Shown in pieces: positions 1-39,953 of a stretch of DNA of 39,953 nucleotides (its first letter is position 1; every line of letters begins with the position of its first letter). The stretch comes from a virus. Both the position numbers and the translations under genes were made by a program. The DNA is taken from positions 1 through 39,953 of the IMG/VR virus record IMGVR_UViG_3300040801_001099. One strand, written 5' to 3'. The notes under the pieces are model-generated. The model was not told the DNA's origin. It ran no database searches and was given only the letters and a program-made list of their open reading frames with translations.

Positions 1-270
1 ATTGGAAACTATGCGTTCAGCAACTGCTCCGGTTTCACCGGAAGTCTGACTATCCCTGATTCCGTCACCACGATTGGAAGCGGTGCGTTCTACAGCTGCT
101 CCGGTTTGACCAATGTAAACTGCTACGTCACCCGCACGATCATGAACGCAACCAACGCCCTCATGAGCACAGGAGTCACCACCCTCCACGCCCGTGCATC
201 CGATGGAACATGGACGGCGGGCCCAGACACCATCGGCGGAAAAGCCCTCACCGTCATCAAAGACCTATGA
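1..270 (+). CDS. Tail fibre / receptor-binding protein, C-terminal end (continuation of 38155..39953 across the circular junction)
   Basis: Frame 1 is open from nt 1 to TGA 268-270. It translates IGNYAFSNCSGFTGSLTIPDSVTT IGSGAFYSCSGLTNVNCYV..., which are BspA-type (LRR_5-like) leucine-rich repeats. It is absent from the ORF track only because it has no start inside the window. Confidence 0.8.
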   Translation: MGNYAFSNCSGFTGSLTIPDSVTTIGSGAFYSCSGLTNVNCYVTRTIMNATNALMSTGVTTLHARASDGTWTAGPDTIGGKALTVIKDL

Positions 271-4204: not shown

Positions 4205-4338
4205 ACGAACCAAACGCCGACCTAAAGCGTGAATCGCTTGCTGACGTATACGAGCGGGAAACCGGAGAGGAACCACCGGAGGACTTGACGGCTCTTGAGA
4301 TTGAGACGCATCTGCGTGAAAGCCAGATGGATTTGTAA
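4201..4338 (+). CDS. Small acidic protein (45 aa)
   Basis: ATGA overlap. MNEPNADLKRESLADVYERETGEEPPEDLTALEIETHLRESQMDL. Confidence 0.45.
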   Translation: MNEPNADLKRESLADVYERETGEEPPEDLTALEIETHLRESQMDL

Positions 4339-4357
4339 ACAAACCGAAAGGATAATT

Positions 4358-5533
4358 ATGACAAAAGAAGAGGCTGAATTTTTATTGCCACACGCATCAT
4401 CTGAAAATCAACATATGCTGTTGCAATATATTATAGACAACGATGGTTGCCCTATGCAACATGCGAGCAAGAACATCGGTGTAACTATGAAATCTGGTAA
4501 TCGTTCAATAAACCGAATAAGAGCCAAGCTTGCAAAAAGAGGTATAGATTACGATAAAGGCATGTTAGGTGAATCAGTCCCAGAAGGATTTCAGCTTACA
4601 AAATCCACCGTGCATATCAAAGACGGCTCGCTCATTCAGCGATGGGATAGAGTACAACAAGACAAGGCTGATGCACAGCAAGCATTGATGGACGCAATCT
4701 CTGAGACTTGCAATGAGCTAAAGCAAGCCCCACGGGTTGCGCAACCCAAGAAAGTTACGCCTAACTTACTTAATCTTTATACAATAGCAGACCTGCACAT
4801 TGGATTGTATGCGTGGGCCAGAGAGAGTGGTGAGGACTACACCACGTCTGTCGCCAAAGAAATGTTGTGGCAATGCTTCTCACAGATGATTGACTCAATG
4901 CCTCCATCGGAATCTTGCATCATTGCCAATCTCGGTGACTTCATTCACTATGACGGCTTGCTGTCACAGACTCCGGCGCATCATAATGTGTTGGATAGTG
5001 ACTCTCGCTATCAGAAGCTGGCAGAGGTAGCATTGGACTTGCAGATATGGATGGTGGAGAAGGCACTGAAAAAGCATAAGAACGTCCATCTCGTCAATGT
5101 AGAAGGAAACCACGACGAGGCTGGCACACCGTGGCTCAAAGTGGCGATGTCACGCATCTTTGCTAAAAATCCACGGGTGTCAGTTGACGTGAACCCGGCT
5201 CCGTATCATGCGACGCTTCACGGCGAGACGATGCTTGCATGGCATCACGGACACAAACGCAAGGATAAGTATCTCGGTGCGCTGTTCGCATCTGATCCTA
5301 AGTTTAGAGAGATGTGGGGAATGTCAAAAAGAACATACATACACACAGGACACCTTCACTCACAAAGCGTCCTAGAGTTACCTGGAGCCGTTGTAGAGCG
5401 TCATCCTACACTCGCCGCACGTTCGAGCTACGAAGCCCGTGGCGGATGGCAGAGTCATCGTGGAGCAAAAGCCATTTGCTACGACGACAAAGGCAACGAG
5501 ACCATGCGTGTAACTGTCGTACCGGAGGTTTGA
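4358..5533 (+). CDS. Calcineurin-like metallophosphoesterase with an N-terminal HTH-like domain
   Basis: Ordered motifs ADLHIG (DxH), NLGDFIHYD (GDxxD), VEGNHDE (GNHD/E), WHHGH and HTGHLH (GHxH). The N-terminal roughly 90 aa is helical and basic (INRIRAKLAKRGI). Confidence 0.75.
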   Translation: MTKEEAEFLLPHASSENQHMLLQYIIDNDGCPMQHASKNIGVTMKSGNRSINRIRAKLAKRGIDYDKGMLGESVPEGFQLTKSTVHIKDGSLIQRWDRVQQDKADAQQALMDAISETCNELKQAPRVAQPKKVTPNLLNLYTIADLHIGLYAWARESGEDYTTSVAKEMLWQCFSQMIDSMPPSESCIIANLGDFIHYDGLLSQTPAHHNVLDSDSRYQKLAEVALDLQIWMVEKALKKHKNVHLVNVEGNHDEAGTPWLKVAMSRIFAKNPRVSVDVNPAPYHATLHGETMLAWHHGHKRKDKYLGALFASDPKFREMWGMSKRTYIHTGHLHSQSVLELPGAVVERHPTLAARSSYEARGGWQSHRGAKAICYDDKGNETMRVTVVPEV

Positions 5534-13325: not shown

Positions 13326-13606
13326 CAGACGATATGGACGACGACAACGTATCTCCAGTCGCCGGGCGAATCAGGCGGATTGCAAGCGTTGACCCCGCCA
13401 CAATTAACATCGGAGATTTGCCAACCGACGAACAGATGATGGAATATGAGCGGATATTCTGGAGTAGGTGCCAGTTGGATCACAGTGGCAGGCGGACGAG
13501 GACTCCACGGGAGAAGCCAGCGTCTGGGTTTGTGCGTGGACAAAATTCTATGTGGTATTCACAGCGTAAATTAAGAGAAATGAAAAGGGCGAAAAAACAA
13601 TCATGA
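13322..13606 (+). CDS. Hypothetical protein
   Basis: 94-aa ORF with an ATGA overlap. Confidence 0.55.
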   Translation: MTDDMDDDNVSPVAGRIRRIASVDPATINIGDLPTDEQMMEYERIFWSRCQLDHSGRRTRTPREKPASGFVRGQNSMWYSQRKLREMKRAKKQS

Positions 13607-15897
13607 TCGAATCAGCATTACAGTATGCGTCACGGGGTTGGCGGGTGTTTCCATGTGTGCCGGGAGAGAAAAAGCCACTAATCAAAGATTGGCAAAAACT
13701 GGCAACTACTAATAACGATCAAATTAGTAAGTGGTGGAAGAAGTGGCCTGACGCTAACATCGCCATGGCTTGTGGCAAGCCGAGTGGCGTGTGTGTCATC
13801 GACGTTGACGTGAGTGATGGTGGCAACGGCTTTCGTGAGCTTGAAGCGTTGGAGATTGAGGAGTGGGAAACATACTACCAACAGACCCCCAGGGGCGGAA
13901 GGCATTACTTTTTCACCGCTCCTTCTGAGAAGGTGGCGAACGCAATCGGGTTCTTTGGGGTTGGGTCAAAGGTGGATGTGCGTGGCGATGGTGGATATAT
14001 AATGCTTGCGCCATCGGTGACGGAGAAAGGCACGTATCATGCCGAGGATTGCGAGCTTGATTCGTTTCCGAAGCTGTTCATCGCCAAGGAGCGTGAGAAG
14101 CAGGCTCCTATTGATTTTTCTGATGTATATCTTCCGAAGTGTGTAGCTGAGTGTTCGACAAGGCTAGAGGAGGCTGAGGCGTATTTGAGAAGAGTCGAGC
14201 CTGCCGTGCTTGGCGATTCCGGGCATGCTAGATTGCTGAAGACCTGCCGTGAGCTTGTTTTCGGATACTTTATCAAGCCAGCGAAGGCTTTAGAATTGCT
14301 TTGGCAAATCTACAATCCGAAGTGTCAGCCACCGTGGGACTCCAGCGACGAAGCGGATGTTAGAGACTTTGAGCGTAAGGTGGTTGAGGTGCTGAAATTC
14401 CCACCGCATGTTATGGGCTTTTTGTTGAAGTGCTATACCAAAGAAGAAGAGGCATACACAGATGTCTTGGTAAACGGCGAGGCACAAGACCTAAACATTG
14501 GTGAGGTGATTACGCAAGAGACTTTTTGTGGTGGTGTGAAATACGAAACAAGAGATAAGGATTTAGAGAGGGAGGGGGTTGCAACTGTATCAATCCCGAA
14601 AGGAAAAGACCCTATCGCACAAATGCAATACGATTACGAGCATGGCAAAACAAAGCTACAGCTCGCTTGCCCGCCTGGGATTGTGGGAGACTTGGCGAAG
14701 CACATCTATTCCACCGCTGGGAAGAGTCAGCCTTTTCTTGCGCTTGGCGCGGCCTTATCCGCACATGCAGCGTTGATGGGTAGAACATTTAGAGACGAAG
14801 ACAACACACGAACCAACATGTATTGCTTTGGCATCGCTCCGTCATCAGCTGGAAAAGACCACCCAACCAAGATGATTGACCGATTGTTTGTAGAGTCTGG
14901 GGTTGGAAATATGGTGGGCGGAAGTGACCTTACGTCTGACACAGCCATGATGAACGGGCTGAAAGGTTTAGAACGGCAATCTGGATTCATGTTAATATGG
15001 GACGAGTGCGGGCATATTGTCCGTAACGTGAAGAACGGCGCGCACGGCGGGTCTTCAAACACCATCATTCCAATGTTGATGAGGCTATACTCCGCTGCAT
15101 CTTCCACTTACCGTCCAAAAATGATGGCCAATAAAGAAGATCAGCTTCAGCCTATTGAACAACCACATGTCTGCTTGTGGGGAGTGACGACTCACGAGGC
15201 TCTGTTTGGCGCAATGAAGATGGAATCATTGCGTGACGGGTTTCTCGGACGTATCCTGCCATTTGTCAGCGATCTTGAGCCAGTGTATGTTAGCGGTAGA
15301 TATGCCCCGTGGCCAAAGCACATACTTAAACACTGGAGTAAAATGTACGATTTGACATTGGAAATAGACGACTCCAATTTATTGGGGCTTCCAAAGATTA
15401 CAGTGATTAAAGAAGAAGATTCTGCTCGTGTGATGCGAGAAAGGTTTTGCCGTTTGTGTGAGCAAGTAAAGGTCGCATACAAAAACGATCATGAGGCTCT
15501 TTGGGGCAAGGCTCACGAGAATTGTCGCAAGATTGCGCTAACCATCGCTGGCGGTACGCAAGAGAAAATGATTACTGGAGAGATCATGGACTACTCAATC
15601 GAACTTACTCGTATGCTTGTCATTGACTACCAACGGCAAGTTGATGAAAACATTTTTGAGACAGAGCATGAGAAGCGTGTAAAACAGGCTGTACAGAAGC
15701 TTAGAAAGAAGGTGGGCGGAGAGCTGTTCTCAAAAACAGACTTTACAAAAGCCAATTATTATCTTAAGTCAAAGGAGCGAGATGAAGTTTGGGAGGATAT
15801 TATTGAAGAGTCGCATGGATTTGTGACTAAGACTAAGAAATCTGTCGCCAAGAAATATAAGTTAGTCGATGCACAAACAAACAAAAAGGAGCAATGA
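13603..15897 (+). CDS. Bifunctional primase-polymerase (PrimPol) fused to a DUF3987/D5-like helicase domain
   Basis: The N-terminus YASRGWRVFPCVPGEKKP...VIDVDV...GGRHYFF...VDVRGDGGYIMLAPS is typical of Prim-Pol. A central Walker A-like APSSAGKD and a Walker B-like LIWDECGH follow. Confidence 0.88.
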   Translation: MIESALQYASRGWRVFPCVPGEKKPLIKDWQKLATTNNDQISKWWKKWPDANIAMACGKPSGVCVIDVDVSDGGNGFRELEALEIEEWETYYQQTPRGGRHYFFTAPSEKVANAIGFFGVGSKVDVRGDGGYIMLAPSVTEKGTYHAEDCELDSFPKLFIAKEREKQAPIDFSDVYLPKCVAECSTRLEEAEAYLRRVEPAVLGDSGHARLLKTCRELVFGYFIKPAKALELLWQIYNPKCQPPWDSSDEADVRDFERKVVEVLKFPPHVMGFLLKCYTKEEEAYTDVLVNGEAQDLNIGEVITQETFCGGVKYETRDKDLEREGVATVSIPKGKDPIAQMQYDYEHGKTKLQLACPPGIVGDLAKHIYSTAGKSQPFLALGAALSAHAALMGRTFRDEDNTRTNMYCFGIAPSSAGKDHPTKMIDRLFVESGVGNMVGGSDLTSDTAMMNGLKGLERQSGFMLIWDECGHIVRNVKNGAHGGSSNTIIPMLMRLYSAASSTYRPKMMANKEDQLQPIEQPHVCLWGVTTHEALFGAMKMESLRDGFLGRILPFVSDLEPVYVSGRYAPWPKHILKHWSKMYDLTLEIDDSNLLGLPKITVIKEEDSARVMRERFCRLCEQVKVAYKNDHEALWGKAHENCRKIALTIAGGTQEKMITGEIMDYSIELTRMLVIDYQRQVDENIFETEHEKRVKQAVQKLRKKVGGELFSKTDFTKANYYLKSKERDEVWEDIIEESHGFVTKTKKSVAKKYKLVDAQTNKKEQ

Positions 15898-15898
15898 T

Positions 15899-16240
15899 AT
15901 GAGTGAATCAAAAGAGCATTCCCTCTTCCTGCCGGATGGGTGGGGGTGGAAACAAAACAGACAAGGTGAGTGGTTCGTTTATAACACCGAGGATGGAGAA
16001 GCTGTTTATCCTGAAGATATGCGAGAATGGTCCGTATTCATTGGTCTCCACCCCAGCGAGGGCGGCGGGTTTCAGCGCTATGTGCCGGGTGATCCGATGC
16101 CGTGTGATGGAGGATTACTTATAGATGTGCCTTGGTTGGATGATATCACGACCTATAAGGCCAACGAGTACTATTGGTCGAGACATATCAAGTATGCGAC
16201 CGTAACAGCATGGCGACCGCACTTTCCGCAGGAGCAATAA
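15899..16240 (+). CDS. Hypothetical protein
   Basis: Internal ATG of track ORF 15869..16240, just after the primase stop, preceded by AAAGGAG. Confidence 0.6.
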   Translation: MSESKEHSLFLPDGWGWKQNRQGEWFVYNTEDGEAVYPEDMREWSVFIGLHPSEGGGFQRYVPGDPMPCDGGLLIDVPWLDDITTYKANEYYWSRHIKYATVTAWRPHFPQEQ

Positions 16241-17425: not shown

Positions 17426-17431
17426 ATCCGA
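17376..17431. promoter_or_regulatory. Chain of overlapping inverted repeats
   Basis: CGCATTTTTG (17376-85) pairs with CAAAAATGCG (17394-403). ATTCGCA pairs with TGCGAAT around an AAAA loop. TCGGATAT (17406-13) pairs with ATATCCGA (17424-31). Confidence 0.6.
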
Positions 17432-17509
17432 ATTATCTGAGATAAATAGGATTAGATTTATCCGAATTGAATGATAATAAAATTGTCAAATCCCTATAGC
17501 GAACCCTTG

Positions 17510-17526
17510 CCCCCCCGTAGGGGGGG
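17510..17526. other. C7-GTA-G7 hairpin
   Basis: CCCCCCCGTAGGGGGGG forms a perfect 7-bp G:C stem with a 3-nt loop inside AT-rich DNA. No flanking T-run on either strand. Confidence 0.7.
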
Positions 17527-17796
17527 TGACATCGAACCGATTCTCACGTTCTCAAACATGCGAAAAGTTTCTCATTCCTGAGACTAACAGAAACGTGTCT
17601 CTTTTGACGTTTTGAGATGACGCCTATATCTCATATCCTGTTTTTTAAAACACTCTCCTAGCAGCCTTAAAATGCGTTTTGCGGCTATCGGCAGTTTTCT
17701 GACAATCATATTGTCGAATATGCTTGTTTTTTCGGCATTCGTGCAGATTTCATGCCAAGTGGTGTTTTTTCGCAAATATTAGAAAATGCCATGTCA

Positions 17797-17817
17797 GAAT
17801 TGAGAATTTCTCAATTC
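17797..17817. promoter_or_regulatory. Perfect 21-bp palindrome, operator candidate upstream of the 17984 operon
   Basis: GAATTGAGAA-T-TTCTCAATTC. TTGAGA/TCTCAA-like half sites recur through 17270-17620. An isolated TTAGAAAAT iteron sits at 17779-17787. Confidence 0.65.
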
Positions 17818-17862
17818 ATAGAACGTGCCAAGTCTGAAAGTATTTTATCGAATTGTGTTTTT

Positions 17863-17882
17863 ATTGAGTAAAATTGAGTAAA
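17863..17882. repeat. Tandem 10-bp direct repeat ATTGAGTAAA x2 (contains TAAAAT -10-like hexamers)
   Basis: Read directly from the sequence, about 100 nt upstream of ATG 17984. The promoter assignment is tentative. Confidence 0.6.
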
Positions 17883-17983
17883 ATAATTTTTCTTTGTCCA
17901 GGCGTAAACTTGGCATGGGAAAGGCTAATATAGATTTATCGGCCACCGCTAACGGCCACAACAAACACAACGGAGAAAAAACA

Positions 17984-18891: not shown

Positions 18892-19259
18892 CGTGCCTTT
18901 CCCCATGGGCGTATGATTGCAAAGCAGGCAATGCGCCGCAATGCTGTTTAAATCGCTTGTTAGCGCGTTTTGGACGCTTGCCTATGTGTGGATAAGGGTA
19001 AGCGGGCAAACGTTGTTAGCGGGCGTGTATGTCCGCCTGGTGGGAATGTGGTTGGAATGCAATGCGAATGTCTGGTGAAGGGTGCGCATAGGGCTGTAAA
19101 GGGTGGCATTGTCCGGTATAGTCCCCCATACGGGTCCTAGGGGCTCTATATGGAATTTTTGGCGGTCCACGTCGAACACGACCTATAGGTGGAGGGATAA
19201 AATAAATATTACTTATTCACTCGCATAACATCACACAAAAGCCTAGATTTGTCTATGTT

Positions 19260-19448
19260 ATGAGACGAACTACAATAATTCTTGATGAAGAATGCTACAG
19301 TATTCTTAAGAAGATAAGATACATGAATGGACCTAACTTATCAGAGATGGTTAGGGACATAATCAAATCTTATGCGGTTGAACAAGACCTCGAAAGAAAA
19401 TTCAATAATGAGATCAGCCAAAATGGACAGACAATCGAACCTTTATAA
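19260..19448 (+). CDS. Ribbon-helix-helix (CopG/Arc-like) DNA-binding protein upstream of terL
   Basis: MRRTTIILDEECYSILKKIRYMNGPNLSEMVRDIIKSY shows a strand-helix-helix pattern. The start codon lies in the 8-bp inverted repeat CATAACAT (19224-31) / ATGTTATG (19255-62). Confidence 0.65.
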   Translation: MRRTTIILDEECYSILKKIRYMNGPNLSEMVRDIIKSYAVEQDLERKFNNEISQNGQTIEPL

Positions 19449-19638
19449 AAACTCAAATAGGACAAACGATCTAGACTGTGCTTTAGGCCAGGTTTTATGT
19501 ATGAACCATTTTTTAGGATGCACTCCTGTTGTTTGTACGCCATCAGACCTGCCCCCAGATATTGACTTTAAAGTAGTTTGCAAAAGGTATGGTGTCATTT
19601 TATGTGATGAAAACACAATATCTGAGTTGCTTTCGTAA
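19423..19638 (+). CDS. Small Cys-rich ORF abutting terL (start uncertain: 19423 or 19501)
   Basis: Part of track ORF 19372..19638. Its stop overlaps the terL ATG (TAATG). No recognisable small-terminase features. Confidence 0.3.
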   Translation: MDRQSNLYKNSNRTNDLDCALGQVLCMNHFLGCTPVVCTPSDLPPDIDFKVVCKRYGVILCDENTISELLS

Positions 19639-21680
19639 TGACAATTAGAGATATAGAAACTAGGCTTGTTGCCGAAGAGAAGAAGAAATCTGTTCGTCGA
19701 GCTGCCAAGGTTGTCACATGGGACGAAGACGCTGAGAATAAAGCACGAATCCAACGTGAGCAATGGCGATACGACCTCCGTGGATTTTGCTTAGAGATGT
19801 TTCCAGACACGTTTTACAATGGCTTTGGAAAGTATCATGTAAAAATGCTAGAGAAGATGCAGAACACCATTTTGGAGGGTGGGCAGATTGCTGACGCTAT
19901 GCCCCGTGGATCTGGTAAAACGACTTGCGCACAAATAGCTATTATGTGGGCAGTTCTTTATGGGCATAGAAAGTTCTGCGTGCTTGTATGCGCCGAGGGC
20001 GGTGCGGCTACTGAACTGATGGACGACATTAAAACCTACTTATGGCAATCTCCAAAAATTAAAGAGTATTGGCCAAAGCTTATATCATATATTGACAAAG
20101 GAGACGGGCAGAGCCAGAAATTCAGGCACTTACTAAACTCTGACGAAACTCCACCAATGATCTCCTGGGGTAAAGAGCGCATACGGCTGCCGTCGACGCC
20201 GAAGTTTGAACTTGATGAATGGGCTGGAGCCATAGTTCACTCATGCGGGATCACTGGCAGAATCCGGGGTATGAAAAAGACGTTGCCTTCTGGATACGTT
20301 CTTCGTCCAGATTTTGTTCTCGTAGATGACCCACAAAGCCGTGAGTCTGCAAAATCTGTGACGCAGATAAACGACAGGGAAAGCACAATTAACGCTGATA
20401 TTTTGGGTCTGGCAGGACCAAATAAAAAAATAGCCTGTTTTATGGCGATGACTGTTATTTATCCAAATGACCTTGCTTGTCATTATCTTGACAAACAAAG
20501 ATACCCAGATTGGAACGCCAGCAAAGTCCCAATGCTTATAAGTTGGCCGAACGCCAAAGATACGCTGTGGGAAGAATATAACCTTATCCGAGTTAGATTG
20601 CTTAACGATGAGAAGCCACTTGATGAGGCGTGGGAATTTTATAGAAAAAATCAAGAAGCGATGGATGCTGGTGCTGAAGTTTATTGGGAGGACCGCACGT
20701 TTCCAGACGATATTAGCCCAATCCAACATGCAATGAACCTTTGGTTTAAAGAGCCAAGTTCGTTTTTGTCAGAATACCAAAATGAGCCTATTGAGTATAC
20801 GGGTGGTGCGCCGTTTATTTTAGAGCCAAGGGATGTGATGACCGCGACAAACGGAAGGAAGCGGTTATCAGTACCAGACGACGCACTTATTATATCATCA
20901 TTCACTGACATCAACTTCAGTGGTTTAAACACTGTGGTAGTAGCCAGTACAAATGATGCTGTTAGATACATCATTGATTACCAAACCTACCCAGGTGGAG
21001 GAAAGGAGCTTTATAGAAGGCCGGAACGTGGGCAATCTATAGGAGACTCAGAGCAAGTGGCGATTGCTAAAGGGTTAGACGCTCACATAGCCCAGATCGC
21101 AAGCGCAAGGTACATGCGAAACGGAAAAGCTGTAAAGCCAGACTTAATTCTTATCGACGCTGGATTTAATAGAGATCTGGTATTTAGGTGGTGCGCTTCG
21201 CATCGGCATGTCTTTGGAAACGTCCATGCCAGCTTGGGCAGGGCTTACAGCAAGTATAGACCTTCTAGCGTCGTAGGTAAGCCTGGGGATAATTTCCACA
21301 TTGCTGAAATTGAGAAGCGTGGCCGTGCGATGGTCCACAACGCCGACGAATGGCGTATGAGGGCGCAGAAGGCATTCTTGCTACCAACAGGCTCCAAAGG
21401 TAGCATCAGCTTGTTTGGCAAGTCTCCAGTGGCTCACAAACGCTTCTCAGACGAAGTATGCGCTGAAGTGCTGGAAGAATACATCGAAGCCACAGAAGGC
21501 GGGAACCAGTTCTTCAAGTGGGGCAAGAAAGTCGGCGTGTCCAACGACTTGCTCGACGCATTGGTAGGAGCGGTGGCAGGGACCGCATATCTCGGAGCCA
21601 GCGAGACAGGACTCGGCGCAGTTCCGTCACGTCCAACGAAGCGCAAGCCACGGCGCACGATGCCGAAGATCCGCATCTGA
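19638..21680 (+). CDS. terL: Terminase large subunit
   Basis: 680 aa. Walker A is AMPRGSGKTT and the Walker B-like motif is DFVLVDDPQS. The C-terminal half is the size of a nuclease domain. It lies upstream of the gpW/portal/capsid genes. Confidence 0.85.
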   Translation: MTIRDIETRLVAEEKKKSVRRAAKVVTWDEDAENKARIQREQWRYDLRGFCLEMFPDTFYNGFGKYHVKMLEKMQNTILEGGQIADAMPRGSGKTTCAQIAIMWAVLYGHRKFCVLVCAEGGAATELMDDIKTYLWQSPKIKEYWPKLISYIDKGDGQSQKFRHLLNSDETPPMISWGKERIRLPSTPKFELDEWAGAIVHSCGITGRIRGMKKTLPSGYVLRPDFVLVDDPQSRESAKSVTQINDRESTINADILGLAGPNKKIACFMAMTVIYPNDLACHYLDKQRYPDWNASKVPMLISWPNAKDTLWEEYNLIRVRLLNDEKPLDEAWEFYRKNQEAMDAGAEVYWEDRTFPDDISPIQHAMNLWFKEPSSFLSEYQNEPIEYTGGAPFILEPRDVMTATNGRKRLSVPDDALIISSFTDINFSGLNTVVVASTNDAVRYIIDYQTYPGGGKELYRRPERGQSIGDSEQVAIAKGLDAHIAQIASARYMRNGKAVKPDLILIDAGFNRDLVFRWCASHRHVFGNVHASLGRAYSKYRPSSVVGKPGDNFHIAEIEKRGRAMVHNADEWRMRAQKAFLLPTGSKGSISLFGKSPVAHKRFSDEVCAEVLEEYIEATEGGNQFFKWGKKVGVSNDLLDALVGAVAGTAYLGASETGLGAVPSRPTKRKPRRTMPKIRI

Positions 21681-21740
21681 CCCGAATCACTACAAAAATG
21701 TAGCACAAACACACCGCAATTCATGATTAACCAAAAAAGG

Positions 21741-22120
21741 TTAATTAGAAAAAATCGGGGTAAATTAGAAAATTTGAGACGAAATTAGAAAATTTAGCCA
21801 AAAGTTAGAAAATCCGAAAAATCGGTCGATGAGCGTTTTGAGTAGTATTTATAGTATTTTTTTAAATATATATTTTTTTATTTAATACTATTTTCTAATT
21901 TTCTAGGGTGGGTACACACCTTTCTATATTTTCTAATTTTTCTAATTCTTCTAGCCACCCCCCTAGAAAAATTAGAAAATCGGGTTTTTAAAAAACTAAG
22001 CATCTTAATTATAACAACTTACGCACACTAAAATTTTCTAATGATAATTAGAACTTTTCGAACATCGTCGTAAGTCGTTGATAATCAACACCTGGATTTT
22101 CTAATTCACTTTAGAACGAT
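21741..22120. repeat. Iteron-like array of TTAGAAAA(T) / (A)TTTTCTAA with a central A/T tract
   Basis: Forward copies start at 21745, 21765, 21785 and 21805, exactly 20 bp apart. An A/T-only tract spans about 21841-21890. Reverse copies lie at 21891, 21929, 21938, 22034 and 22097. A further forward copy lies at 21972. Degenerate copies lie at 21899, 21946, 21963, 22048 and 22111. Confidence 0.85.
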
Positions 22121-22194
22121 TTTTTTGATATAAATGCTTGTGTAAACCTAAATGCTCATGTATATTGATATACGTTAACCCAAACCAAGGAAGT

Positions 22195-22395
22195 ATGATG
22201 ACATTCGATATAACTGAATCCCGTGGCAAAGCAATGTTCTTGCAGTTCTATGCGCCAGCCACGTTTGGCGAGTTGATTACTGAACTCTCCGAAAAGACTG
22301 GACACAAGAAAGCCTACGTTTGCAGAGAGCTGATTCGCAACGGCGTTGATGCGTTCATTGCCAAGCATGGCTTGGACATCCAAGTGATAAAATAA
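22195..22395 (+). CDS. Ribbon-helix-helix-like protein immediately downstream of the iteron array
   Basis: AAGGAAG RBS before ATG 22195 within track ORF 22138..22395. KAMFLQFYAPATFGELITELSEKTGHKKAYVCRELIRNGVD fits strand-helix-helix. Confidence 0.6.
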   Translation: MMTFDITESRGKAMFLQFYAPATFGELITELSEKTGHKKAYVCRELIRNGVDAFIAKHGLDIQVIK

Positions 22396-22471
22396 AAAGC
22401 CGAACATTCCGCTTGCAAACCGCCGATTCGTATGGCAAAGAGAAATCTCAAACCAAAAAAAAGGAGAATAA

Positions 22472-22702
22472 ATGCGAAATACTGGAGCAATCACCATTCC
22501 GCAGCATTTTGAGAAAATGCACAAGATTTACGGGATGCCTACTTCCGAGGACCGATTAGAGGGTCATTTGCGACAAAAACAGTACGCAGACTCAATTTGC
22601 GCCCTTATGTTCGGACAAGACAACGCAGAGATGGCGGGACGCGATTCTGAGCGTTCCGCCGATAGTTTGGTTGCAACTGAGGAGAAAACCAATGGACACT
22701 GA
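22472..22702 (+). CDS. Hypothetical protein
   Basis: 76-aa ORF with an AAAGGAGA RBS. Confidence 0.5.
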   Translation: MRNTGAITIPQHFEKMHKIYGMPTSEDRLEGHLRQKQYADSICALMFGQDNAEMAGRDSERSADSLVATEEKTNGH

Positions 22703-22913
22703 ACATAGAGATAAACCGATTTGCCCCCATTGTGGGTATGAAGAAACTGATGCGTGGGAGATGGATTTTGGAGGGCTCGAAGGTTGCGAAGAGTTTGAAT
22801 GTGGTATGTGCAGTGAGCCGTTTTTCTGCACGAAATCTGTTACGATTACCTACAGTACAAAGCCAATCAACGCCAAAGCTGGCCGGATTGCCGACCAAGG
22901 AGAAAAGCTATGA
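22692..22913 (+). CDS. Zinc-ribbon mini-protein
   Basis: Internal ATG of track ORF 22671..22913. Contains CPHC...(24 aa)...CGMC. Confidence 0.55.
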   Translation: MDTEHRDKPICPHCGYEETDAWEMDFGGLEGCEEFECGMCSEPFFCTKSVTITYSTKPINAKAGRIADQGEKL

Positions 22914-23167
22914 AAAACGGAAGCGATGTCGGCAATTCGGCCAAGTGTATTGTTGAAAAAATTTGGATAGCTGTTGGACACAGTGATGAATACGGGCCTG
23001 TAGTGCTCCCTGCTTATGCGGCTTCAAGGGAGGCGGATGTGTACAGGAAAATCGACATGTTTGATGGCCGCCGTGTTGCTAAAGAGCTTGGTTGGGACGT
23101 CATTGAAGCGAGCGTTTCATTCAACGCCGGAGCTGGCCGGATTGCCGAGCGAAAGGAGGACGTATGA
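22910..23167 (+). CDS. Hypothetical protein
   Basis: 85-aa ORF with an ATGA overlap. Its 5' and 3' junctions are copies of the same 89-nt sequence (see findings). Confidence 0.55.
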   Translation: MKNGSDVGNSAKCIVEKIWIAVGHSDEYGPVVLPAYAASREADVYRKIDMFDGRRVAKELGWDVIEASVSFNAGAGRIAERKEDV

Positions 23168-23232
23168 ACCGCGAGACAGGTAAAGGCAATTCGGCCCGGT
23201 GTCTGGTTGAACCTAAGAAAAGGATGGTATGA
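23164..23232 (+). pseudogene. Truncated paralogue (22 codons) of 22910..23167
   Basis: MNRETGKGNSARCLVEPKKRMV* compared with MKNGSDVGNSAKCIVEKIW... It has the same ATGA junction, and homology is lost after about 16 codons. Confidence 0.3.
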
Positions 23233-23233
23233 A

Positions 23234-23539
23234 ATGATGGCTTTTCCAACGACGTGCAAAAAATGTGGTAATGTTGACTTTGACCCAACCGGCAAAGTGC
23301 CGGATGAAGATATATGTGAATGCAACAAAAAAGATTTTGAAGCGCAGAAGTTAGAAGAACTCCTGTCTAGATACTGGGACTTAGCCTACCAAGAAGGAAG
23401 CCTAGGTATATCTTACGGGGATGAAGCTAATAAGGTGCTTCATGAACTTCGTCACATGTTCAACGAAAAGCTGACCGGATCACGCGATAAAGCGGGATTC
23501 GGTCAAGAGTATGGTTGTAAAGTGGAGTCAGAAGAGTGA
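23234..23539 (+). CDS. Zinc-binding small protein
   Basis: Internal ATG of track ORF 23207..23539. Contains CKKCGN...ICEC. Confidence 0.55.
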   Translation: MMAFPTTCKKCGNVDFDPTGKVPDEDICECNKKDFEAQKLEELLSRYWDLAYQEGSLGISYGDEANKVLHELRHMFNEKLTGSRDKAGFGQEYGCKVESEE

Positions 23540-23636
23540 GCACGCACACTATACCCGTAAGTAGGCACGTCAAACGCGGGAGTGACGGGGCGCGTATCGT
23601 GCACGCAACCCCCTTGCGTGCTCACTCTTCTGACTC
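23525..23636. repeat. 22-bp perfect inverted repeat with 68-nt spacer
   Basis: GAGTCAGAAGAGTGAGCACGCA (23525-46) pairs with TGCGTGCTCACTCTTCTGACTC (23615-36). Confidence 0.9.
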
Positions 23637-23748
23637 TTTGTGCCCGTGCTGCAATGGCGTTAGAGTTTTAATCAATAGGTTAGACCATTCGCGTTTTTAC
23701 GATTGCCCTTTGTGTAAGGGCTCTGGGAAATACAACAACAAGGTCTGA
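23536..23748 (+). CDS. Zinc-finger mini-protein (DnaJ-type CxxCxGxG)
   Basis: GTG start overlapping the upstream TGA. Contains CPCCNG ... CPLCKGSG. Confidence 0.5.
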   Translation: MSTHTIPVSRHVKRGSDGARIVHATPLRAHSSDSLCPCCNGVRVLINRLDHSRFYDCPLCKGSGKYNNKV

Positions 23749-23966
23749 TGATGGAGCACATTGACACTTTGCTTTTCCATATACGAGAGGCGCAAAAAGC
23801 ACTTGAGGATGATTACCCGAGATACAAGGATTACGGGAAAGAGCATAGCGTATTAAAAGCAGTTCAGTCTTTGCGCCGGGCGCACCAGGTCGCTACTGTA
23901 ATCAACGCCACCCCTTGCGGACGCAGTTCCGCACAGGGGATGGTTGAAGCTGATGGAGGTAAATAA
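23748..23966 (+). CDS. Hypothetical protein
   Basis: 72-aa ORF with a TGATG overlap. Confidence 0.5.
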   Translation: MMEHIDTLLFHIREAQKALEDDYPRYKDYGKEHSVLKAVQSLRRAHQVATVINATPCGRSSAQGMVEADGGK

Positions 23967-24139
23967 TGTGGAATCCTGACACATGGAAAATACTGATGGC
24001 TGAAAATCCAGCAATGGAAGAAGCTAAATTACACGGCAAAAAAAGCATTTACAAGTGCGATGAAACCGGAGGGACGATCACTGCTTATTTATACGATGGG
24101 CAAATATTCATAGATGAAATAAAAGAGGTGAAATCATGA
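23966..24139 (+). CDS. Small hypothetical protein (57 aa)
   Basis: Hand-translated as MWNPDTWKILMAENPAMEEAKLHGKKSIYKCDETGGTITAYLYDGQIFIDEIKEVKS. It overlaps both neighbours. Confidence 0.4.
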   Translation: MWNPDTWKILMAENPAMEEAKLHGKKSIYKCDETGGTITAYLYDGQIFIDEIKEVKS

Positions 24140-24483
24140 GCTGGACCCACTTATCTGATACGACCCCTAAAGCCCGTAAACAATATCGGTGTGATATTTG
24201 CAATGAAATTATTGAAGTCGGTGAAGATCACGTTGCCAGACGTGGAGCGGGTGAGGGGCGCATAGTGACGATGAGGATGCATCTTGACTGTGAAGAATTC
24301 TCTAAGGCGTGGGATCAAATGGATTGGGAGTGCCACTGTCCGGGTGATTGTACACGTCAGGAGGTTCGTGATTCTCTGGCACGGAAACTCAACGCATCTG
24401 CTAATCGGCACAGCGAGAAACGAGCGGAGTCCGATTCAGCAAGTGGCCGAACAAAATCACCGTCCGTTTGTCAAATAGTTTGA
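24136..24483 (+). CDS. Cys/His-rich (zinc-binding) protein
   Basis: Contains CDICNE...HLDCEE...CHCPGDC. 115 aa. It is the last gene of the accessory block. Confidence 0.55.
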   Translation: MSWTHLSDTTPKARKQYRCDICNEIIEVGEDHVARRGAGEGRIVTMRMHLDCEEFSKAWDQMDWECHCPGDCTRQEVRDSLARKLNASANRHSEKRAESDSASGRTKSPSVCQIV

Positions 24484-24670
24484 CTAAATGCAACTAAGTA
24501 AACTATGAGTTTACATAACAAGCAAAACGTAAACCAACAATTTGCATGGCGAGCGTAGCGTCTGGGCTGTAATGGGCCGAATGCAAACGGCTGTGACTGT
24601 GGCCGTCTATGCGAGACCAGTCCCTTTTTGCTATTGACTAAATCGGACAATGCGTATAAGAATTATACAA

Positions 24671-24913
24671 ATGAGCCGTGCATACGTTAGAAAACTTAGA
24701 GAACATCTCGCCAAAATCGAATCTGCCATTGATGAAGTCCTCACCGCTGGGCAGTCAATGTCACTAGACGATGGCGTGTCATACACCCGTGCGTCACTGC
24801 CACGGCTGGATATGATGCGTAAGCAGACAGAAGCGCAGATTGCACGAGCCACCGGGCGCAATCCGCTGTTTCAATCAGTGAATATGTCTGGTGCATACGG
24901 AGGCTCGAACTAA
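24671..24913 (+). CDS. gpW-like head-tail joining protein
   Basis: LREHLAKIESAIDEVLTAGQSMSLDDGVSYTRASLPRLDMMRKQTEAQIARATGR parallels the lambda gpW pattern ([27 protein letters not shown]...L..YI..LE.Q). It sits directly before the portal gene with a TAATG overlap. The start could instead be 24650. Confidence 0.55.
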   Translation: MSRAYVRKLREHLAKIESAIDEVLTAGQSMSLDDGVSYTRASLPRLDMMRKQTEAQIARATGRNPLFQSVNMSGAYGGSN

Positions 24914-26457
24914 TGCCAAACAAACTTGCGATCTCAAAAGCCATGGAGCGGAATGCATCACGGGAAACCGTGGCCCTTGAATACGAAGCCACTCAGTCCA
25001 ACTCCAATCGCAAGCAAGCGAAGACTGGCAAGAAGTCACATCAAGACATCACGTTCACTCAGTCGCAACGCCAGCGTGCGGAAAACGCCACTCAGAACGT
25101 GTTGGAGAACGTCCCGCTGGCCGGCTGGATGATTCGTCGCCACCTGGACGCTGTGGCCAATTTCTATGTGGACGTTGACTCCAGTGTGCCGAAGGAGCTT
25201 CGTGACCAAATCGAAGCATTATTTAAGTGGGCTGGCAAACCCGACCAGTTTGACGCCGCACGTCGGCACAACATCCAAGAAGCTTGGCGTTTGTACGAGC
25301 TGAACAAAGTCATCGACGGCGATTCGCTCATGGTCAAGATTGATCGGCGCAAGTCTCCACGCTATGGCTCTGTCCAACTTGTCGAAGGCTCACGCATCAT
25401 GACTCCACGGGATTTGCCCGACTACCTTGCTGGCGTTGACAAAGACGGATTCAAGAAAGTCAACGACCACGGTATCGAAGTGGATCCATACGGCGGCGCA
25501 AAGTCGTTTATCATCTGCAAGTACGCTCCCCGTGGACACCAGATGATGTTCGACCGCCGGGTGTTGGCTCGTGACGCTATCTACTCTGGCTATTTCAACC
25601 GCTATTCGCAGACCCGTGGCGAATCTCCGCTTCTGTGCGCTGTGAACCAGCTTCTCGACATCAAAGAAGGCATGGAGTACATCCTGCTCAAAATCAAACT
25701 CCATGCGCTGTTTGGATACGCCATCACCAAAGAAGCTATCTCCGACATCGGCGATGGCCTTGGCTCCACGGCGGAAACCGTAATCGACGAAGATGCCGAA
25801 TACGAAGATGATGCCGAAGTGGATACCAGCCGGGAAGTGGACATCAGCAGTGGCCCGTTCTCCGTGAATCTCATGGAAGGCGAGAAGATTCAGACAATCG
25901 AATCAGAGACACCGCCAGAATCCGTCAAGGATTACACCGAGCTTGCCATCCGCTCTGCGTTGCTTGCGCTCGACATCCCGTTCTCATTTTTCGACGCTGG
26001 CGGATCAAACTTTGCGAAAGTCATCGCTGACCGCAAGATGTACGAGATTTCAGCCGAAGCAAAACGTGCCAAAAACCAATCGGCCTATGAAAAATGGGTT
26101 GACTGGAAACTGGCAATGTGGACATCAGCCGATGGTCCGTTGTCGCAGTACAGCTACCGTGAATTGCGTGACCACATCAGTGTTCGTCCGCACCCGACAC
26201 CTTGGCTTGACAAAGAAGGCGAGATTGCTGCCGAAGAACGTGCCATCGCCCTTGGCATCAAGAGCATCCCAGACCTTGCCCGTGAGCGTGGCGTGGACCC
26301 GTATGAAGTGATCGACAAACAGGCTGAGTTCCTTGCATACGCAGAAGAAAAGAACGTGCCGATTTACATCGGAGACCCTGGGGCAAGAAGCGAACGTGAA
26401 AACAGACTTGACAATGAACTTGTCGAAGATGATACTGAGGAGACAGATGAGCAATAG
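24913..26457 (+). CDS. Portal protein (lambda-family-like)
   Basis: 514 aa, lying between the gpW-like and protease/scaffold genes, with an acidic C-terminus. The family assignment comes from position, size and my recollection of ...QTRGESPLL-type motifs. Confidence 0.8.
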   Translation: MPNKLAISKAMERNASRETVALEYEATQSNSNRKQAKTGKKSHQDITFTQSQRQRAENATQNVLENVPLAGWMIRRHLDAVANFYVDVDSSVPKELRDQIEALFKWAGKPDQFDAARRHNIQEAWRLYELNKVIDGDSLMVKIDRRKSPRYGSVQLVEGSRIMTPRDLPDYLAGVDKDGFKKVNDHGIEVDPYGGAKSFIICKYAPRGHQMMFDRRVLARDAIYSGYFNRYSQTRGESPLLCAVNQLLDIKEGMEYILLKIKLHALFGYAITKEAISDIGDGLGSTAETVIDEDAEYEDDAEVDTSREVDISSGPFSVNLMEGEKIQTIESETPPESVKDYTELAIRSALLALDIPFSFFDAGGSNFAKVIADRKMYEISAEAKRAKNQSAYEKWVDWKLAMWTSADGPLSQYSYRELRDHISVRPHPTPWLDKEGEIAAEERAIALGIKSIPDLARERGVDPYEVIDKQAEFLAYAEEKNVPIYIGDPGARSERENRLDNELVEDDTEETDEQ

Positions 26458-38154: not shown

Positions 38155-39953
38155 ATGACAGACACAGCCACAATCAGAAAGCATCTAATCAAATCAGATT
38201 TCAGCGGAGCGTCTGAGGCTGAACAGTTTGAGTTCTACCAAGCGGAAACACTCCAGCTTGAGTTCGTTGCCACATCCAAGTGGGACGGACGTGTGGACAT
38301 GCCTCAAGGAGGTTCTTGCAAGCTCGAAGCATGGCTCGCATCAGACCCTAGCACACTTTACGTCAACAAAGTAGGCACAGTATCCGCCGACACCGACAAA
38401 GCCACTGTGTCGCTGTCCCGTGCCGAGAGCAATATGCCAGCGGGAACGTACACGTACACCGTGAAGGTATTCGACGCTGACGACACCATGACGGGTGTTG
38501 TCGCTGGTGGCACATTCGTCGTGAACTATGCTCCTGACAGCGACGCTGTGGACTACGTTGGCACAACGACCTACCCTGTTGCGAGCGACATCACGTATGA
38601 CAACGCCACGAGCGGATTGACAGCAGACAATGTGCAAGATGCGATTGACGAGCTGGAGGACGAGATTGACGTCGCTCTTGTTGGCGAATGGGGCGAGATC
38701 ACAGGAACGCTGTCCGACCAGACGGATTTGCAAGATGCTTTGGATGGAAAGGTAGGCACAGGTGACTCCCGCCTAACAGACGCACGAGAATGGACAGCGG
38801 ATACAATCGACCAAGCGGAAGCAGAAGCAGGCACAGCGACGACAAGACGGGCGTTTACTGCATTGCGTGTCCGGCAGGCGATTGCGGCTTGGTGGGCGGG
38901 AATCACAAGCATTACCATCAACACAGTCAAAGCCCTGACCGCCTCCGGCATAGCCCTGAAAGACTCCGACGATGTAACACAAGCGACGATCAACAACCTC
39001 GGCATTGTGACGGGAGACGGAACGCGAACCGCCTCAACCGGATGGGCGCGTATTGCTAGTTTTGCTGCTGCATCGATAGCGCAAATGAACCGGGCTACAC
39101 CGTCAGATTTCGCATCGTTTAATTTCAAAACCAATAATGTGGATTATTGGGCGATGGGGCTGTCTTCAAACGAGACGTCCGCCAACGCGTGGACGTTTCG
39201 CAATCTGATTTCAGGCGTCAACACATTCTGGCTGGATGTGACAACGAACTTCGGACACTTTTTGATTGGTATCATCTCGCCAATCATCAAAGCCGCCAGT
39301 GCCGCAGGCATCGCATTCCAAGACGACACAGGCACGACGCAAGCGACGATTGACAGCACGGGACTTGCGCTGACCACCGACCTTGCAGTCACACACGGCG
39401 GTACGGGTGCGAGTACGGCGGCGGATGCACGCACGAATTTAGGCGCACTCGGCATAACAGAAACAGCCTCCGACGTAAACCCCGCAGGAACGCAGATTGC
39501 GGCGGCTTTGGGAGCTTTGGCGTTCACCCTCAACGACGTTGCCAACAACGCCGCAAAGCTGGCCCTGACCGGAATTGATGCGGGACACATCGTGCGTGTG
39601 ACGGTTGAGGCGAACAGGGTTGAGCAGTACATCGGTGGGACGATCAGCGATGAGTCGAGTTGGAGGACACTACCAGCTTCGTCCGACCTGCAACATACGC
39701 AAACCCCGACCTTCGTCAAGACCGCCAGTGCCGTCACCGATTTTATTCTCGGGGACATCCCGGATAACTGGAAGGGCGCCGTAGGCACACTCACGGGGCT
39801 GTCCTTGGGGTCTTCCGTCACCACGATTGGAAACTATGCGTTCAGCAACTGCTCCGGTTTCACCGGAAGTCTGACTATCCCTGATTCCGTCACCACGATT
39901 GGAAACTATGCGTTCAGCAACTGCTCCGGTTTCACCGGAAGTCTGACTATCCC
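38155..39953 (+). CDS. Tail fibre / receptor-binding protein, N-terminal 599 codons (continues at nt 1-270 or 57-270 across the junction)
   Basis: I translated frame 1 from ATG 38155 (GGTGAAAAAATC upstream) to the window end and found no stop. It contains classic fibre motifs: GDSRLTDAREWTADTIDQAEAEAGTATTRRAFTALRVRQAIAAWW and THGGTGASTAADARTNLGA. It ends in LRR units. It is missing from the track because it has no stop in the window. The antisense ORFs 38341..38733, 38571..39134 and 39144..39824 are shadows. Confidence 0.85.
   Translation, partial: MTDTATIRKHLIKSDFSGASEAEQFEFYQAETLQLEFVATSKWDGRVDMPQGGSCKLEAWLASDPSTLYVNKVGTVSADTDKATVSLSRAESNMPAGTYTYTVKVFDADDTMTGVVAGGTFVVNYAPDSDAVDYVGTTTYPVASDITYDNATSGLTADNVQDAIDELEDEIDVALVGEWGEITGTLSDQTDLQDALDGKVGTGDSRLTDAREWTADTIDQAEAEAGTATTRRAFTALRVRQAIAAWWAGITSITINTVKALTASGIALKDSDDVTQATINNLGIVTGDGTRTASTGWARIASFAAASIAQMNRATPSDFASFNFKTNNVDYWAMGLSSNETSANAWTFRNLISGVNTFWLDVTTNFGHFLIGIISPIIKAASAAGIAFQDDTGTTQATIDSTGLALTTDLAVTHGGTGASTAADARTNLGALGITETASDVNPAGTQIAAALGALAFTLNDVANNAAKLALTGIDAGHIVRVTVEANRVEQYIGGTISDESSWRTLPASSDLQHTQTPTFVKTASAVTDFILGDIPDNWKGAVGTLTGLSLGSSVTTIGNYAFSNCSGFTGSLTIPDSVTTIGNYAFSNCSGFTGSLTI
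39826..39953 (+). repeat. Nucleotide-identical 72-nt (24-aa) LRR units in tandem
   Basis: 39826-39897 equals 39898-39953 over the 56 nt available, and also equals window nt 1-79 (divergence begins at nt 80). Each unit encodes IGNYAFSNCSGFTGSLTIPDSVTT. Confidence 0.9.

Follow-up and report, generated by a model that had tools for sequence, protein, structure and literature searches.

The stretch of DNA analyzed here (the window) comprises all 39,953 nucleotides (nt) of the IMG/VR virus record IMGVR_UViG_3300040801_001099, to which contig Ga0450792_172582 of the metagenome JGI 3300040791 is identical. It is a phage and probably a circularly assembled complete genome, because its first and last 56 nt are identical and lie within a 72-nt tandem repeat. 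Between the gene for the large terminase subunit (terL) and the head genes, the window carries an array of short repeated words at about positions 21740–22120. This array is real, conserved in related phages with turnover of the word, independent of orientation, and located away from the genome terminus. From the comparison of sequences, we judge the chances to be roughly even that it is an iteron-type origin of bidirectional (theta) replication. What favors an origin is the conserved architecture with a changing word, the orientation independence, the array that follows the primase and helicase genes in the relative L006 (L numbers denote the loci compared), and the initiator-like protein encoded in the window. 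The origins of nearly all uncultured phages are unknown and can rarely be identified from sequence; here, a clear candidate is at hand in a lambda-like environmental phage family.

The word TTAGAAAA/TTTTCTAA occurs exactly 12 times in the window, against 1.43 ± 1.08 copies expected from dinucleotide shuffles (maximum 4; none of 100 shuffles reached 12), and 10 of the 12 copies lie within positions 21745–22104. Because the spacer that holds them is A/T-rich, it was also shuffled separately as a control for local composition: in 2,000 dinucleotide shuffles of these 514 nt alone, no 8-mer exceeded 5 copies, compared with the 10 observed. The array is the sole word cluster of its kind in the apparently complete genome. 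A preliminary description of this DNA, made from its letters alone, had listed ten word positions, all of which proved correct, and the comparison with shuffled sequences that it proposed bears out the enrichment. Outside the array, it had listed the copy at 17779 and overlooked a second at 24687; as secondary sites both were rejected, since two copies are at the chance level (1.4 expected genome-wide). The elements of the array and its edges, in window positions, are:

21690–21703: small dyad CTACAAAAATGTAG, common to the arrays of relatives
21744–21813, + strand: four direct words (A/G)TTAGAAAA(T/A), proposed iterons, with start-to-start spacings of 20, 20, and 20 bp
21745, 21765, 21785, 21805, and 21972, + strand: exact words
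21891, 21929, 21938, 22034, and 22097, − strand: exact words
21841–21890: A/T tract, 92% A/T, proposed DNA-unwinding element, with pure A/T at 21855–21887 (33 nt)
21890–21981: large inverted repeat, with − words at 21890, 21898 (degenerate), 21928, and 21937 and + words at 21962 (degenerate) and 21971
22033–22054: palindromic word pair ATTTTCTAAT-GATA-ATTAGAAC
22069–22089: CGTAAGTCGTTGATAATCAAC, one half of a conserved palindrome, interpreted as a bending site of the IHF type
22096–22117: another palindromic word pair, ATTTTCTAAT-TCAC-TTTAGAAC, at a distance of 63 bp from that at 22033
22118–22194, + strand: predicted promoter/leader region, ...AACCCAAACCAAGGAAGT-ATG, with a duplicated TAAATGCT(T/C)(G/A)TGTA

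The terL stop (21680) and the next credible start (22195) are separated by a spacer of 514 nt with 29% G+C, which contains only low-complexity open reading frames (ORFs), the longest of 41 amino acids; this confirms the earlier statement that the spacer is non-coding. The exact 20-bp phasing of the four left words was likewise reproduced, so that the array has at least three direct repeats at helical phasing, as iteron-type origins do. The adjoining A/T-rich unwinding element of such origins is present in sequence at 21855–21887, where melting is predicted. The preliminary description had called about 50 bp here "A/T only"; the stretch as a whole is 92% A/T, and the pure A/T run within it (33 nt) is the longest in the genome (the runner-up has 15 nt) and lies inside the genome's lowest-GC 60-mer. 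The extended form of the word is ATTAGAAAAT. Of three copies said to be extended by TCGG, two are directly followed by it (21745 and 21972), whereas the third (21805) reads TTAGAAAATCCGAAAAATCGG.

To the right of the A/T tract, the words turn around, the directions across the array being + + + + / A/T / − − − −. The inverted repeat noted earlier was also found again: its inner arms (21928–21944 and 21964–21980) are perfect over 17 nt, its outer stem (21890–21981, about 92 nt) folds as a single strand with z = −4.6, and its GC-rich core is CTAGGGTGGGTACACACC ... CTAGCCACCCCCCTAG. The left arm of this core is the only terminator-like site in the spacer, and a consensus promoter scan identified no sigma-70 consensus on the + strand of the spacer. 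Further right, the two palindromic word pairs bracket the non-word block 22069–22089. No DNA match for the array was found among GenBank phages or PLSDB plasmids, and no Rfam family, tRNA, or tmRNA was identified in the window. As a side observation, the core of the small dyad, TACAAAAATGTA, flanked by (C)...(G) and with at most one mismatch, also occurs at the arrays of L003 (two copies), L006, L026, and L008, and it is absent outside arrays in 328 kb of loci. Its position within the array varies among the five phages (window 21690–21703, L003 2499–2528, L006 3215–3226, L008 2358–2369, and L026 1209–1220); a −10-like element and a protein site are both conceivable.

Arrays in related phages and the predicted cohesive end

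Homologs of the terL protein with 50–79% identity were found in metagenomes only. In L003, L009/L010, and L008, whose terL proteins are 63–79% identical to that of the window, terL is followed by arrays of like architecture but with differing words, namely TGTGATAT in L003 (terL 79%), AATTCACA in L009/L010, and CGTGAAT in L008 (terL 63%). The arrays of L003, L008, and L009 contain pure A/T runs of 17–29 nt, and the opposed word directions across the A/T tract recur in L008 and L009. L003 and L008 share the GC-cored inverted repeat and non-word blocks with the window, and the core of all three contains GG(T/C)ACACAC as well as a C6 run. The inverted repeats of L003, L008, and L006 fold with z values of −3.3 to −7.0, and that of L009 is weak (z = −1.9). 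The words change among close relatives while the scaffold of A/T tract, GC-cored inverted repeat, and IHF-type site stays constant, and the module shifts in place and orientation. Word turnover on a constant scaffold is the pattern expected when sites coevolve with a specific binding protein.

With regard to orientation, the order of parts shows that the L003 array is colinear with that of the window, whereas in L008 and L009 the array runs the opposite way with respect to terL and the head genes. In L008, the block CGTAAGTCGTTGAT(A/T)ATCAACAC lies on the opposite strand and on the opposite side of the core, and the phased words stand to the right of the A/T tract. This inversion suggests that the array works independently of the flanking transcription units. 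Other relatives (L004, L006, and L011–L013) run directly from terL through one small adaptor gene to the portal gene, with neither an array nor the cassette of small ORFs that follows it in the window. Judged by this gene order, the window array and its roughly 10 small orphan ORFs are an insertion relative to the terL–adaptor–portal order. After terL, L006 and L026 lack an array; eight copies of ATGTCCAGA and a GC-cored palindrome instead directly follow the genes for SSB, a primase, and a DnaB/AAA_25-type helicase, an arrangement that, by its gene order, is a pri-rep-ori layout.

The main rival of the origin is a regulatory platform, that is, a super-operator or enhancer whose words bind a phage transcription factor that represses or activates a promoter at about 22120–22190 driving the small-gene cassette and the head genes, with the A/T tract as an UP or curved element and IHF in an architectural role. 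In every relative with an array, the array abuts a conserved promoter- or leader-like sequence (the right-edge leader appears alike by eye in the window, L003, and L009), the last word pair (22096–22117) lies just upstream of the leader, and the palindromic word pairs resemble dimer operators. Moreover, in the array-less L011 and L012 the interval between terL and the adaptor gene contains an ordinary sigma-70-like promoter (by eye), and the window encodes a ribbon-helix-helix (RHH) protein at 19260–19448. Nevertheless, we consider a regulatory platform unlikely: the flanking genes of L008 and L009 keep their orientation although the arrays themselves are turned around, the L006 array precedes replication-module genes and not head genes, and about a dozen sites over 380 bp, together with the 33-nt A/T run and the GC-rich inverted repeat, far exceed what an operator needs. 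In addition, no DNA-binding gene is conserved beside the arrays, and the word is not above chance at the early control region. It is plausible that the array also acts, secondarily, on the adjoining promoter.

The specific form of this proposal in the preliminary description, an RHH super-operator acting on downstream genes, found no support in that form, because the downstream gene differs in each array-bearing relative and has no homologs. The first gene after the array encodes a secreted protein in L003 and a Cys-rich protein of 70 amino acids in L009, and L003 has, as read from its translated sequence, a methyltransferase-like ORF upstream of terL in place of the RHH gene. A linked RHH gene conserved together with the repeats, which would characterize an RHH operator or a type Ib/II centromere, was therefore not found in these relatives. 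The 66-amino-acid ORF at 22195, described earlier as an RHH gene, has no Pfam match even at E ≤ 1 and no homolog among 5.8 billion proteins. In its single-sequence AlphaFold2 (AF2) model, a disordered N-terminus is followed by helices at residues 23–34, 38–48, and 50–57, a predicted fold that is compatible with RHH but not diagnostic of it. The other small protein (19260–19448) matched the Pfam family RHH_1.

A centromere-like partition, incompatibility, or handcuffing site for a plasmid-like prophage was another possibility raised by the repeats. Type Ib/II centromeres, which are bound by RHH proteins, are typically arrays of short direct and inverted repeats, two small RHH-like ORFs are present, and no integrase was found among the window ORFs scanned, a scan that covered the larger ORFs and not every small one. 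The same scan, however, identified no ParA-, ParM-, or TubZ-type gene that could supply the partition NTPase, and no repressor or lysogeny module was identified. Furthermore, the A/T unwinding tract and conserved GC core are not features of centromeres, and the L006 array stands at the 3' end of a helicase gene. A partition role is accordingly very unlikely. Of the joint origin/partition proposal made earlier, the comparative evidence favors the origin.

The array adjoins terL, and its combination of a conserved core, variable words around it, and an IHF site bears a formal likeness to cosN, cosB, and I1 of lambda; moreover, the same palindrome is often found near terminase genes (assigned by eye) in other viral contigs. 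These features would suit a packaging signal (cos or pac), which the preliminary description had also suggested, or an auxiliary site for terminase binding. The ends of the contigs point elsewhere. Specifically, contigs L003, L004/L005, L008, and L009, from four samples, end at one homologous base 240–310 nt upstream of terL, which lies 16 nt before AAAyTTmCACTTCC in L003, L004, and L009 and 74–75 nt before a common TTGACA promoter-like box in L003 and L008. The contigs of most other relatives end 80–312 nt upstream of terL, whereas six contigs read through the arrays without a break. These are ends of assembled contigs, not of virion DNA, and the most satisfactory explanation for their coincidence is that the virion DNA physically ends there, at a cohesive end site (cos) placed, as in lambda, upstream of the terminase genes.

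When mapped by hand through the shared CTATATGGAAT block, the predicted left cohesive end (cos cleavage) would fall at about 19115 (19100–19130) in the window. This position is only approximate because AAACTTCCACTTCC, the contig-end mark of L003 and L004, is missing from the window. With cos at this place, the array would not be the packaging site, and it does not coincide with the predicted DNA terminus; L004, L006, and L011–L013, moreover, have the same terminase family and no array after terL. A packaging function of the array is therefore barely credible. The terminal 16 nt vary among the phages; AAAyTTmCACTTCC is common to three of them and absent from the window.

The conserved palindrome within the array

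The non-word block at 22069–22089 occurs in L008 in the opposite orientation and in L003 in degenerate form. In full, the palindrome spans 29 bp and reads CGTAAGTCGTTGAT(A/T)ATCAACGACTTACG. The exact 20-mer GTAAGTCGTTGATWATCAAC was found in 91 IMG/VR contigs (L034–L124) with 70 distinct flank contexts and 34–61% G+C. These sites are almost always intergenic, often lie beside a GC-rich hairpin, and sometimes stand beside other word arrays (L048 and L057). No DNA-binding neighbor gene was consistent among the viral contigs, the neighbors seen including the GP88 family, a putative terminase, and a tail-fiber-like gene. Among unrelated viral contigs, L048, which appears T7-like from its terminase (by eye), has at about positions 60–290, in this order, four repeats of about 22 bp (GTGTATAAtttttatacag), an A/T-rich stretch, the palindrome, and GTGACA repeats; L057 and L093 have other word arrays near the palindrome.

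Searches of PLSDB identified matches over 29–30 of 31 nt of the palindrome in the IncW plasmid R7K and a Bordetella plasmid (L125 3001–3030 and L126 3001–3029). Both lie directly 5' of GCGCACCGAAAGGTGCGTATTGTCT/ATAGCCC, the TrwC IR2-nic of the origin of transfer (oriT). In the oriT of R388, inverted repeat (IR) 2 is reportedly bound by TrwC, IR3 by IHF, and IR4 by TrwA (PMC4814116). From its position beside IR2, the matched plasmid repeat should be IR3, and by inspection each half of the palindrome fits the IHF consensus WATCAANNNNTTR; on these two grounds, we read the block as an IHF-type bending site. IHF sites are present in many iteron origins and are compatible with an origin as well as with cos, attP, or oriT. 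The exact conservation of the palindrome seems to exceed what IHF alone requires. A literature search found no paper on the palindrome sequence, and a search for sbaA/sbaB returned only irrelevant matches.

The near-identity of block 22069–22089 to an inverted repeat directly flanking the IncW-type IR2-nic raises the question of an oriT-like site or another site of single-strand nicking or recombination, for mobilization by a conjugative element or as a rolling-circle start. oriT regions are A/T-rich intergenic stretches rich in direct and inverted repeats (PMC4853378), and the array is likewise A/T-rich, intergenic, and filled with repeats. On the other hand, no relaxase or HUH gene was found among the window ORFs scanned, and the TrwC IR2 and nic sequence GTATTGTCT/ATAG of the MOBF/IncW type are absent from the window. 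Given these absences, an oriT function is highly improbable. Furthermore, the block lies about 100 bp from the GC-rich inverted repeat in the window and is not adjacent to it, and the simplest view of the common block is that it is an IHF site of the host, a type of site that serves in many nucleoprotein complexes. A candidate R388 nic-like sequence in the core, GGTGGGTA...TCTATA, was rejected because its spacing differs and the relatives lack it. BLASTP of both small RHH-like proteins against TrwA of R7K gave no alignment.

A broader reading of these data takes the array to be an invertible and portable origin cassette that passes from one phage genome to another, settling after terL or after a helicase gene, and that is built on the 29-bp palindrome common to at least 70 unrelated environmental viral contigs and the IncW-type oriT. 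We regard this as doubtful. If it were true, the palindrome would mark a hitherto unrecognized, widely exchanged cis-module, or the site of a conserved binding protein other than IHF, and the module would connect the replication of phages with the boundaries of packaging modules and with conjugative transfer.

Candidate initiator and neighboring genes

The features of the window relevant to the array are:

4295–5533: exonuclease, a replication/recombination gene
13603–15897, + strand: Prim-Pol + AAA+ (DUF3987/D5-like) protein of 764 amino acids, candidate initiator, with a winged-helix-like C-terminal domain at residues ~688–754
~17430–17890: early control region, with a GC hairpin (GCCCCCCCGTAGGGGGGGTG), a 21-bp palindrome at ~17797, and divergent genes
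19260–19448: RHH gene (Pfam RHH_1, 3e-4)
19638–21680, + strand: large terminase of the gpA (lambda) type, left neighbor of the array (Pfam GpA_nuclease, 3.4e-7; PHROG 38 terminase large subunit, 2.2e-31)
22195–24650, + strand: about 10 small orphan ORFs forming a cassette that separates the array from the head–tail adaptor gene
24650–24913: head–tail adaptor (PHROG 118)
24913–26457: lambda-type portal

The 764-amino-acid protein matched Pfam Prim-Pol (5.9e-41), DUF3987 weakly, and a PHROG annotated as DNA primase. Its AF2 model (predicted local distance difference test score, 87.6) comprises a prim-pol domain, an AAA+ domain, and a C-terminal helix-helix-helix-wing unit, whose putative recognition helix is at residues ~711–734. 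In Foldseek searches with this model, pRN1 ORF904 and the NrS-1 prim-pol were followed by AAA+ proteins of the MCM/ORC type, and the match of the N-terminal prim-pol domain to ORF904 was found by sequence as well as by fold. The closest homolog, P0121, is 53% identical overall and belongs to a syntenic replication module, but only 20% of the last 40 residues are identical; the C-terminus is the most diverged part of the protein, which would fit a change of DNA specificity. The P0121-type replication module is carried by contig L030, from the same sample as L010, the contig with the AATTCACA array, and there is no word cluster within the module itself. On the predicted structure, the winged-helix C-terminus of the Prim-Pol/AAA+ protein is the likely binder of the words.

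We infer the word binder, the melting, and the replication function as follows. A phage-specific initiator, for which the C-terminus of the 764-amino-acid protein is the best candidate, would bind the words of about 10 bp. The four words at two-turn phasing would place it on one helix face on one side of the A/T tract, and the oppositely oriented words of the large inverted repeat on the other side would allow two oligomers to assemble head to head. A host IHF-type protein would bend the DNA at 22069–22089, the 33-nt pure A/T run would melt, and the same Prim-Pol/AAA+ protein would then act as helicase and primase. The promoter of the small-gene cassette and the head genes may also be modulated by binding at the words nearest to it (22096–22117). 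If this is true, the family would supply a set of naturally matched specificities between Prim-Pol/AAA+ initiators and their iterons, it would exemplify an origin situated within the late (packaging–head) region, and it would provide a practical signature for locating origins in metagenomic phage genomes.

Several observations weigh against an origin. Between the Prim-Pol stop and the start of the array lie 5.8 kb, which include the predicted cos and terL, and the array always lies just upstream of a promoter-like leader, so that a purely regulatory role is possible. No DnaA boxes were identified, the L006 array has no long A/T run, and GC skew gave no origin signal, although it is uninformative here because nearly all genes are on one strand. 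SaPI (Staphylococcus aureus pathogenicity island) Rep was outside the Foldseek top 50 for the candidate initiator. In addition, the proposed link between words and winged helix would rest on one divergent pair (the window protein and P0121) and on a linkage of L030 to L010 that is assumed from their shared sample.

Elsewhere in the window, the further replication and recombination genes encode a Sak4-like AAA_24 protein, a PD-(D/E)XK nuclease, an SNF2/DEAD helicase, and RusA, and the other structural genes encode a GP7-type capsid protein and tail proteins. The ORFs scanned yielded no gene for an integrase, a protelomerase, a relaxase, or a partition ATPase. An exact look-up of the window terL found no record, with IMG/VR relatives of only 31–33%, and a genome scan yielded only distant terL relatives (≤41%) in metagenome-assembled genomes of Planctomycetota, Lentisphaerota, and Alphaproteobacteria. 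In L029, the region homologous to the early control region (14740–15010) contains four TTGGCTAAAT-like repeats, indicating that the early operators use words other than those of the array.

Some side observations concern the remaining sequence. In the small-ORF cassette, segments 22864–22957 and 23118–23211 are 73% identical, suggesting paralogous small genes, and the corresponding cassette of L003 has other content, including a MazG-like gene. A 71-nt stretch at 16046–16116 is 86% identical to L006 5668–5737 and L026 3662–3731; it lies in ORFs of 123 and 282 amino acids, and the replication modules are otherwise unrelated. At the window end, the 72-nt tandem repeat is exact (junction region, window 1–130 and 39813–39953), and its translation resembles, by eye, a leucine-rich-repeat protein spanning the circular junction. 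A gene at 210–1064 belongs to the sulfotransferase family (Pfam Sulfotransfer_3, 2e-16).

Comparison with known replication and transfer systems

In the origins of SaPIs, 6–12 short element-specific iterons surround an AT-rich center; each side has two or more of them, those on one side pointing opposite to those on the other, and they are bound by a winged helix at the C-terminus of the self-loading Rep helicase, which is sometimes fused to a primase as PriRep (PMC9371898). The window likewise has opposed iterons on both sides of an A/T tract and encodes a predicted fused Prim-Pol/AAA+/winged-helix-like protein, whose AF2 model shows an MCM/ORC-like AAA+ domain and C-terminal helices with a beta-wing. 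Its top 50 Foldseek matches did not include SaPI Rep, and no sequence homology to SaPI Rep was detected. The words are also longer (8–10 bp in the window, 5–6 bp in SaPIs), and the window adds the strict 20-bp phasing of four words, the large GC-cored inverted repeat, and the IHF-type site. SaPI origins lie directly 3' of rep, a position that among the phages compared is found only in L006, whereas in the window the distance is 5.8 kb.

In the lambda origin, iterons at about two-turn spacing adjoin an AT-rich region (PMC7466680). Four repeats at about two turns followed by an AT-rich region are thus found in both, and the virion module of the window is itself lambda-like, with its gpA-type terL and lambda-type portal. 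The lambda origin also has a palindrome beyond the AT-rich region. It differs in that it lies inside the O gene and uses 19-bp inverted-repeat iterons bound by O, whereas the window element is non-coding, lies in the late region, and has extra inverted words, in a genome without O or P homologs. The ori and crr sites of the satellite phage P4 share an octamer iteron, in direct and inverted copies, that is bound by the C-terminal domain of the alpha primase–helicase fusion. The second of these cis sites lies kilobases from the gene, the two separate sites are both required, and the alpha primase is of the toprim type; the two required sites and the toprim primase set P4 apart from the window with its Prim-Pol.

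In replicons of the pRN1 type, whose ORF904 contains prim-pol and an SF3 helicase along with a winged helix, the proposed origin is a stem–loop of about 100 nt that is functional when relocated on the plasmid and at which the proteins are proposed to assemble (PMC4234260). The inverted repeat of about 92 nt in the window array and the ORF904-like prim-pol domain recall this arrangement. In contrast, the pRN1-type origin, its role itself inferred, lies 3' of rep and has no iterons or A/T tract. With the oriT of IncW plasmids (R388/R7K), the window has a single block in common, the consensus palindrome matched at the presumed IR3; it contains no relaxase site, nic sequence, or, among the ORFs scanned, relaxase gene.

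Taken together, the element is most likely a replication origin of a kind that is already known, and what is unusual is its position in the late region and its mobile and invertible configuration. The earlier remark that no equivalent had been described at this genomic position is fair for lambda-like gene orders, but does not extend to the element itself, which is of a well-known kind.

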